Counted from the stretch's first letter, positions 78 to 223 are shown. The stretch: 300 bases of DNA from Escherichia coli (GCF_003334335.1 NZ_QOWQ01000222.1), one strand, 5' to 3'. Numbers and translations are program-made. Notes: generated by a model not told the origin, from the sequence alone.

Positions 78-111
78 ATACGGGTGTTACCTGAAAGATT
101 TTTACTCGGGG

Positions 112-128
112 CCAATCTTTAAGATTGG
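112..128. other. 17-bp perfect palindrome CCAATCTT-T-AAGATTGG overlapping the orphan CCA end
   Basis: + 112-119 ccaatctt is the exact reverse complement of + 121-128 aagattgg, with a single central base (t120). As RNA it could form at most a 6-bp stem with a 5-nt loop. A third copy of the motif, aaagatt at + 94-100, can pair with aatcttt at + 114-120 instead, so two mutually exclusive pairings exist. Confidence 0.55.
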
Positions 129-143
129 TGGGTCGTGCAGGAT
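126..143 (-). repeat. orphan tRNA-Lys 3'-end fragment (tRNA positions 59-76: AUCCUGCACGACCCACCA), third copy of the tRNA 3' terminus
   Basis: + 126-143 (tggtgggtcgtgcaggat) is identical to + 2-19 and + 224-241, i.e. the last 18 nt of the tRNA including CCA. The flanking base 125 (t) also matches position 1. Identity stops abruptly at 144 (g, versus t at position 20), which is inside the T-loop, and nothing resembling the rest of a tRNA lies upstream of it. Confidence 0.85.
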
Positions 144-168
144 GACTCGCTTCGCTCGCCCTACGGGC

Positions 169-184
169 CGTTGCTGGCGCAACG
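169..184 (-). other. inverted repeat / predicted RNA hairpin, 6-bp stem and 4-nt loop
   Basis: + 169-174 cgttgc is the exact reverse complement of + 179-184 gcaacg; the loop is 175-178 tggc. It sits in the GC-rich centre of the spacer and no U-tract follows. Confidence 0.5.
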
Positions 185-197
185 TTATCCTTCACGC

Positions 198-220
198 TTA
201 ACATCTGAGTTTGATGTTAA
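198..220 (-). other. inverted repeat / predicted RNA hairpin, 8-bp stem and 7-nt loop, starting 3 nt downstream of the upstream tRNA's CCA
   Basis: + 198-205 ttaacatc is the exact reverse complement of + 213-220 gatgttaa; the loop is 206-212 tgagttt. In the minus-strand transcript this is UUAACAUC-AAACUCA-GAUGUUAA. The stem is AU-rich (6 of 8 pairs) and no U-tract follows on either strand. Confidence 0.6.
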
Positions 221-223
221 AAC

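Follow-up and report, generated by a model that had tools for sequence, protein, structure and literature searches.

Structured RNA cassettes that lie behind many enterobacterial tRNA and 5S rRNA genes have been known since 1978. They are named tRNA-linked repeats (TLRs) in PMC8144298, which credits their first description to Egan and Landy (1978) and their catalogue to Rudd (1999). For Escherichia coli K-12 this paper gives 22 TLRs over 10 loci, with one to five elements per locus. The hallmark of a TLR is a 3' end of 18-19 bp that is identical to that of the upstream tRNA or rRNA (PMC8144298). According to the same paper TLRs have no known function, and a stringent-response phenotype that had once been ascribed to the RtT of the tyrT locus was later retracted (PMC8144298).

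The tyrT locus carries tandemly amplified 178-bp repeats (rtT RNA, rttR), whose units end with the 19 3'-terminal nt of tRNA-Tyr and, behind them, the trailer of this tRNA. Bosl and Kersten reportedly detected a tyrT repeat RNA of 171 nt in 1991. The small RNAs RrA, RrB and RrF, which are encoded between the dual terminators of rrnA, rrnB and rrnD, are also members of the TLR family, and the repeat of the upstream gene defines their 3' end. They copy the end of the 5S rRNA, have GGA motifs and in vitro bind both CsrA and Hfq, whereas the TLRs of tRNA operons are predicted not to bind CsrA (PMC8144298).

We analyzed a stretch of 300 nucleotides of E. coli DNA (the window), which is 100% identical to K-12 and to many further E. 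coli genomes. It corresponds to the reverse complement of positions 2501-2800 of our K-12 lysT operon sequence (L001) and maps to the lysY-lysZ spacer of this operon, between cpoB and nadA. According to ARAGORN, the minus strand of the window carries a pair of identical tRNA-Lys(UUU) genes. The upstream gene, lysY in K-12, is at 224-299 (79.2 bits with the Rfam tRNA model) and is the one whose 3' end is copied; the gene at 2-77, lysZ in K-12, is also detected by Rfam and lies downstream of the copy. The two genes are separated by a spacer of 146 bp (78-223). Within this spacer, positions 126-143 (TGGTGGGTCGTGCAGGAT on the plus strand, ATCCTGCACGACCCACCA on the transcribed strand) repeat tRNA-Lys positions 59-76 without a mismatch (18/18); this copy begins in the T-loop, runs through the CCA and matches the ends of both genes. 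Its pseudo-CCA corresponds to about position 781,320 of MG1655. A sequence-only reading of this DNA had located and described the copy correctly, including its distance to the next tRNA-Lys, which is 48 nt from the pseudo-CCA on the transcribed strand. It had extended the copy to 19 nt by counting the flanking base; this base (125) agrees with the one that flanks the gene at 2-77, but not with that beside the gene at 224-299. Allowing up to two mismatches, the 18-mer occurs exactly three times in the window. An origin of the exact 18-mer by chance is not expected, because it did not occur in any of 200 dinucleotide-preserving shuffles.

A TLR (RtT in Rfam) in the lysY-lysZ spacer of the lysT operon has the 18-nt fragment as its 3' end. 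The Rfam model RtT (RF00391) matches positions 126-292 of the minus strand with 54.4 bits, compared to a gathering score of 45 (E = 3.7e-10), a match whose genuine part comprises only the 3' ~70 positions of the model (approximately 60-130), the 5' half being forced onto the tRNA. Moreover, the element is located directly behind the tRNA-Lys at 224-299, on the same strand and inside a tRNA operon, and it has the core hairpins of the family. Thus, the fragment is not an orphan that stands alone, as had been proposed, but the end of a conserved 73-nt element (126-198, minus strand), which belongs to a long-known family and is not new in kind. Since a copy of 18-19 nt of the upstream gene is the published hallmark of TLRs, the finding itself was already known. 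What distinguishes the window copy from the family at large is its length: it is a short form of ~73 nt without the helices P2 and P3, whereas the Rfam model is centred on a long form of 114-124 nt.

The likeness to the tyrT repeats, which had been suggested from the sequence, is correct, because the elements are homologous: they share the core, match one and the same Rfam family, RtT, and are both published TLRs (PMC8144298). The tyrT units differ in being of the long form and distal to the tRNA genes, whereas the Lys copy lies within an array of tRNA genes. The K-12 lysT operon contains five RtT matches, one for each tRNA-Lys that has a spacer or a trailer, and in all five the 18-mer follows the conserved core. 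The five elements that we find equal the per-locus maximum of the Rudd catalogue as cited in PMC8144298. PGAP/RefSeq annotates only the terminal element, behind lysQ, as RtT sRNA and leaves the other four of the K-12 lysT operon, including the window copy, without annotation.

The terminal element mirrors the terminator-TLR-terminator layout of rrA, rrB and rrF. In K-12 the intrinsic terminator of lysQ (AATGTAAAAAAGCGCCCTAAAGGCGCTTTTTTGCTAT) is exactly duplicated behind the terminal RtT (L001 3008-3044 and 3164-3200), an arrangement that resembles rrnA, rrnB and rrnD. The detailed lysT processing study PMC4176162 considers one terminator in its model and mentions neither the second terminator nor the TLRs.

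On the transcribed strand the element reads AG-CGUGAAGGAU-AA-CGUUGC GCCA GCAACG-G-CCC GUA GGG-CGAGC GAA GCGAG-UC-AUCCUGCACG-ACCCACCA and is predicted to form a four-way junction. The closing helix, P1, joins the 5' arm CGUGAAGGAU (187-196, minus strand as are all parts of the element) to the 3' arm AUCCUGCACG (134-143), which copies tRNA-Lys positions 59-68 and is the first part of the 18-nt fragment. Nine of the ten pairs of P1 can form in this copy, the exception being an A.G mismatch. Hairpin H1 (CGUUGC-GCCA-GCAACG, 169-184) has a near-invariant, 100% paired stem and a variable loop; H2 (CCC-GUA-GGG, 159-167) has an invariant stem capped by a GNA triloop; and H3 (CGAGC-GAA-GCGAG, 146-158) consists of a closing C-G pair, a tandem G.A/A.G, two Watson-Crick pairs and a GAA loop. 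The second part of the fragment, ACCCACCA (126-133), copies tRNA-Lys positions 69-76 including the discriminator and the CCA and is left as an unpaired 3' tail. Isolated elements fold into P1, the hairpins H1, H2 and H3 and this 8-nt tail. A tandem GA motif in RtT has also been noted in PMC7657543.

The remainder of the spacer consists of two parts. The lysY trailer (199-223, minus strand), delimited by sequence and by a fold of the whole spacer, forms the left part of the cassette and is for the most part occupied by a predicted hairpin (UUAACAUC/GAUGUUAA, 198-220) that reaches 1 nt into the element. On the other side of the pseudo-CCA lies the 48-nt leader of the downstream tRNA (78-125, minus strand). 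No promoter was detected in the spacer, and coding potential is unsupported, as the only open reading frames of at least 20 amino acids overlap the tRNA genes or the structured core. No intrinsic terminator, with a G+C-rich hairpin followed by a U run, is called on the transcribed strand; terminator-like calls in the window are confined to the untranscribed plus strand, and one of them is the H1 hairpin read backwards.

Two further features of the spacer were noted. When all 146 nt are folded, the 5' arm of P1 (UGAAGGAU, 187-196) pairs with AUCUUUCA in the lysZ leader (88-99, minus strand), which displaces the pairing with the pseudo-tRNA segment and is peculiar to the lysY-lysZ spacer. A perfect 17-nt palindrome, CCAAUCUUAAAGAUUGG (112-128, minus strand), also begins at the pseudo-CCA, which forms its first arm, and in strains whose spacer lacks the element the genuine CCA of the tRNA lies within an equivalent, shorter CCAAU/AUUGG hairpin.

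The predicted structure is conserved and covaries among homologues. For the short form (30 homologues, behind Lys and Arg-ACG genes), 94.2% of the alignment cells at paired positions can pair, compared to 88.1% in shuffles, none of 500 of which reached the observed value, and to 28-51% when the partners were slid against each other; compensatory changes are found in P1 and H3. For the long form (29 homologues, behind Tyr, Pro, Arg-CCG, Gln and Lys genes), the value is 91.3%, compared to 35-45% for slid partners, and 17 pairs show changes on both sides, six of them in P1. RNAalifold independently finds P1, H1, H2 and H3 as well as a covarying C-G/U-A pair that closes the tandem G.A. In the homologue alignments this closing pair of H3 alternates between C-G and U-A, and the inner pairs between GC, CG, AU and UA. 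The 5' arm of P1 covaries with the identity of the tRNA and with species-specific tRNA variants, a covariation that in part goes back to a small number of tRNA types and not to numerous independent events. Complementarity of the 5' arm was assessed with position-specific arms and alignments, after an earlier unpositioned test (best 12-mer anywhere within 118 nt upstream) had been uninformative, with 9.3 pairs for cognate versus 8.5 for non-cognate ends.

The 8-nt tail is as conserved as the paired part of the copy, with 11 mismatches in each among 100 elements from the matches listed. As the tail is not needed for P1 and yet is equally conserved, pairing alone is insufficient to explain the identity to the tRNA, which is therefore upheld by something more than P1, be it a processing requirement or recombinational homogenization. 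The long form adds two helices to the common structure: P2, in which an antisense copy of the T-arm pairs with a sense copy of the 5' strand of the T-stem plus UUCGA, and P3, a further hairpin that contains G.A pairs. From these sequences we infer that a partial copy of the tRNA would hold the conserved core exactly between its positions 58 and 59.

A scan of prokaryotic genomes, one per species, for the core motif GCAACGRCCYGNAGGGYGAR yielded at least 120 loci. G+C-rich chance matches have no tRNA nearby, and at least about 110 matches, from Enterobacterales, Gilliamella, Marinobacterium, Amphritea and a gammaproteobacterial MAG, are real. The real loci show the same order throughout, namely the core, a small variable hairpin, GAGU(A/C) and 18-19 nt of the upstream tRNA. 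Among the matches listed, the upstream tRNAs are Lys-UUU, Tyr-GUA, Arg-ACG, Arg-CCG, Pro-CGG, Pro-UGG and Gln-UUG, and 87 of the 106 elements that have an upstream tRNA (82%) are identical to its tail over all 18 positions. The junction is sharp and falls between tRNA positions 58 and 59 in all tRNA types, the identity extending over 18 nt in 53 and over 19 nt in 47 of the elements among the matches listed. Moreover, the copy follows lineage-specific changes of the tRNA, such as CCCGC in the tRNA-Lys of Hafnia, CCUCCUGG in the tRNA-Arg of Serratia and the Arg-CCG variants of Marinobacterium, whereas the flanking spacer cannot be aligned across homologues. A further variant among the matches listed lies behind 5S rRNA and ends in the 5S 3' end; it corresponds to rrA, rrB and rrF of PMC8144298.

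Six of the 5S-linked loci (L009, L046, L056, L061, L062 and L094) have a core that ends in AACUGCCAGGCAU and a complementary 5' arm, GGCAGUU; in L009 and L046 the element is located between the 5S rRNA and a tRNA-Thr(GGU). At four other loci, L020 (oriented position 1585), L029 (9367), L058 (4645) and L096 (2779), TLRs were found 76-90 nt upstream of a tRNA-Tyr, and no tRNA was found upstream of these TLRs. In their 3' part AUCCUUC is kept and then the sequence diverges, so that these leader-side or degenerate elements break the 18-nt rule.

Next to the comparison between species, we read the complete lysT operon directly in eleven E. coli genomes. Every Lys spacer falls into one of two classes, 132-149 bp long and containing the element or 33-51 bp long and lacking it; for S1-S4, numbered in operon order, the sizes are 135, 149, 146 and 132 bp when filled and 35, 51, 48 and 33 bp when empty. 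An empty spacer is exactly the sequence that lies 3' of the pseudo-CCA in the filled allele, so that in the lysY-lysZ case the 48-nt leader is the entire spacer and the trailer at 199-223 is missing along with the element. What is precisely present or absent according to the strain is thus a cassette of ~98-100 bp, bounded by the tRNA end and its copy, which together form a direct repeat of 18-25 bp around it (25 nt, CCA + AUUUUAA, in some alleles). With F for filled and E for empty S1-S4, and counting the units behind the last Lys gene, K-12 is FFFF with one terminal unit, FDAARGOS_944 and 025542-1 are FFFE with none, AR_0085 is FEFF with none, 042 is EEFE with two, ET846 is FEFE with one, AR_0104 and RM14723 are EEEE with none, E2348/69, which has an extra Lys gene, is EEEE with one, strain 139, which has one Lys gene fewer, is EEF- with none, and SCPM-O-B-8794 is EEFF with none. 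By megablast, the 146-bp spacer is present in at most 4,068-4,207 of 5,426 genomes, an upper bound because neighbouring pieces were joined. Filled Lys spacers, again in a mosaic, also occur in Citrobacter, Pseudocitrobacter and Pseudescherichia.

The filled alleles of any one spacer are orthologous, since their trailers are identical. Direct repeats of 18-25 bp around a hairpin-rich segment are classical deletion substrates. The simplest reading of the sequences is that an ancestral cassette was repeatedly and precisely deleted through its repeats and occasionally duplicated, although gain may have occurred as well. The filled and precisely empty spacers and the zero, one or two terminal units agree with the suggestion that unequal recombination acts on the copy or gave rise to it. 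In the filled lysY-lysZ alleles of 025542-1 (L141) and AR_0085 (L142) the exact 18-mer is gone, and in 025542-1 the tail reads ACACACCA. Identity to the tRNA is therefore not absolutely kept within E. coli. Individual cassette copies are dispensable, and substitutions in the tail together with the loss of cassettes in many strains mean that any function is non-essential. The E. coli strains provide natural and precise knock-outs of every cassette, so that the role of TLRs, a question 45 years old, can be tested directly. The two terminal RtT units of 042 are arranged in tandem (L143 2144-2425), as compared to one unit in K-12 and none in several strains.

Taken together, we think it likely that the copy is the 3' end of a TLR which folds into a P1-closed junction, is transcribed in the tRNA precursor, is cut at the pseudo-CCA and takes part in repeat-mediated recombination. 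The cassette would be transcribed inside the polycistronic precursor. Because of its tRNA-like end and the A/U-rich stretch behind it, the element would be cut after the pseudo-CCA by the machinery that matures tRNA 3' ends, with RNase E acting just 3' of the CCA and exonucleases trimming the product. Such a cut would free a by-product RNA and separate it from the leader of the downstream tRNA. At the level of the DNA, cassettes would be deleted, duplicated and homogenized as the tRNA end recombines with its copy or as slippage occurs between the two.

Published data bear on several of these steps. The lysT cluster is transcribed as a single precursor, and Northern probes for the lysY-lysZ spacer detect large precursors only, in RNase P and RNase E mutants (PMC4176162). 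No stable small RNA from this spacer is mentioned in that study. RrB, a 5S-linked TLR, has its 5' end 3 nt past the 5S end and its 3' end 3 nt past the repeat, and its processing has been attributed to RNase E (PMC8144298). That RNases may take the pseudo-CCA for the end of a tRNA, as had been suggested, is also the published proposal for TLRs, the direct evidence for which concerns RrB and not this copy. None of the five lysT pseudo-CCAs has an RNA 3' end in the Term-seq tables of PMC7815308, from which near-identical, multi-mapping ends may have been dropped; the ends listed there are at valT, valZ, lysZ (+3/4) and lysQ. Thus, the search for a transcript end that coincides with the pseudo-CCA returned none from these tables, in which multi-mapping could hide such ends. 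The terminal elements lie behind a strong intrinsic terminator, so their expression needs read-through. In being by-products of tRNA precursor processing by RNase E, the predicted RNAs would resemble 3'ETS-leuZ and other small RNAs from tRNA spacers. However, 3'ETS-leuZ is unrelated in sequence and structure and acts as a base-pairing sponge, and no such target is known for the Lys TLR.

A released RNA could in principle go beyond a by-product and act in trans, as a regulator or decoy that titrates proteins recognizing tRNA 3' ends or that works like the Hfq- and CsrA-binding 5S TLRs. The invariant core, with H1, H2 and the tandem G.A, does suggest a conserved binding partner, the unpaired ACCCACCA tail is conserved, and RrA, RrB and RrF bind Hfq and CsrA in vitro (PMC8144298). 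We nevertheless consider such a role unlikely, since the 19 TLRs of tRNA operons score below 0.01 for CsrA binding in the analysis of PMC8144298, the phenotype claimed for the tyrT RtT was withdrawn, natural strains exist that lack all four internal Lys TLRs, and a stable RNA from the spacer is reported neither in PMC4176162 nor in the tables of PMC7815308.

The strain mosaic can also be read in terms of gain. One such proposal, which is speculative and in our estimate improbable, is that the TLR cassettes are no passive by-products but actively cycling, site-specific modules of stable RNA genes that consist of a conserved core, at the 58/59 join of the element's own copy of the tRNA 3' part, and a host-matched antisense arm. 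If so, the cassette would either spread to further stable-RNA 3' ends or attract a conserved partner that acts on tRNA or 5S 3' ends, and the filled/empty polymorphism of E. coli would reflect ongoing gain as well as loss. A related proposal makes the element a non-autonomous mobile element that inserts at stable-RNA 3' ends with an 18-19-nt target duplication, so that filled spacers are insertions and not the ancestral state. In its favour, four independent spacers are precisely filled or empty, in a mosaic among strains, the 58/59 junction is sharp in all tRNA types, and one core is present beside unrelated host genes. However, no transposase or recombinase is associated with the element, and the complementary internal arm needs more than a target duplication. 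Orthologous filled alleles at each spacer, as observed, are predicted by repeat-mediated deletion in descendants of a filled ancestor, filled Lys spacers are shared with Citrobacter, Pseudocitrobacter and Pseudescherichia, and the repeats that flank the hairpin-rich cassette suit deletion. All this makes mobility quite unlikely.

It is very unlikely that the copy is a chance or decaying, neutral remnant of a duplication, free of constraint or role. The dispensability of individual cassettes and the substitutions in the tail of some alleles are compatible with decay, but an exact 18-mer is not expected by chance, about 100 elements among the matches listed retain the arrangement, 82% of them at 18/18, next to spacers that cannot be aligned, the helices contain compensatory changes, and the copy tracks lineage-specific changes of the tRNA. 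Conservation had been named as the relevant check, and the arrangement recurs in these ~100 elements across Enterobacterales, Gilliamella, Marinobacterium and others.

The 3' ends of tRNA genes are common integration targets. With the attB/attR repeats that integrases leave there, the window shares a directly repeated 3' segment of a tRNA gene. A scar left by a tyrosine-integrase element that once entered the tRNA-Lys 3' end, duplicated it and was later lost, as had been proposed, is extremely unlikely, since in the eleven E. coli operons the interval contains no integrase, prophage or island and no remnant of one, only a ~80-bp TLR core plus trailer (a cassette of ~98 bp) or nothing at all, and since the same structured core recurs beside seven tRNA species and behind 5S rRNA, with an internal arm complementary to the copied end that integration does not explain. 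In phage and plasmid collections the matches are large chromosomal records or small fragments, with host flanks or chance coding matches and no genuine association; of 15 matches to viral contigs, four lie close to contig ends and are TLRs of the Tyr or Lys type, and the others are coincidences in coding sequence. Thus, the sequence-only reading is partly supported: it was reasonable on tyrT homology, repeat-mediated rearrangement and tRNA-end mimicry, and wrong on the integrase scar.

One of the viral contigs, IMGVR_UViG_2660238126_000002 (L125 4569-4588), has a Tyr-type TLR that is cut off inside P3 and has unrelated sequence upstream; this boundary within a TLR may be that of a rearrangement or of a prophage. 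Two other identities for the element were tried and rejected. It is not a tRNA gene or pseudogene, as ARAGORN and the Rfam tRNA model call only the two flanking genes; the four-way junction is of tRNA-like size, but its arms are unlike those of a tRNA. A retroviral primer-binding-site-like origin by reverse transcription (such copies are also 18 nt long) does not apply either, because it is positions 59-68, and not the CCA end, with which the 5' arm can pair.

The cognate-end rule, the covarying 5' arm and the mosaic of filled and empty spacers among strains are useful documentation of a known family. Some further observations concern its other loci. Pantoea (L081) and a Klebsiella species (L024) have at least three tandem units, each with its own terminator. 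In E. coli SK1144 (L002 1801-2003) the tyrT-tyrV spacer is 33 bp long and the RtT repeats are absent, so the tyrT array of TLRs is polymorphic too; the tRNA genes of this strain are followed by fatty-acid and sterol desaturase genes and not by the usual narI side. Finally, the CpoB/ybgF thermometer (RF02782) was found with 129-150 bits near cpoB at every enterobacterial locus scanned (L028, L048, L054, L081, L098, L110, L115 and L122), ~1-1.5 kb upstream of the lys operon and unrelated to the 18-nt copy.
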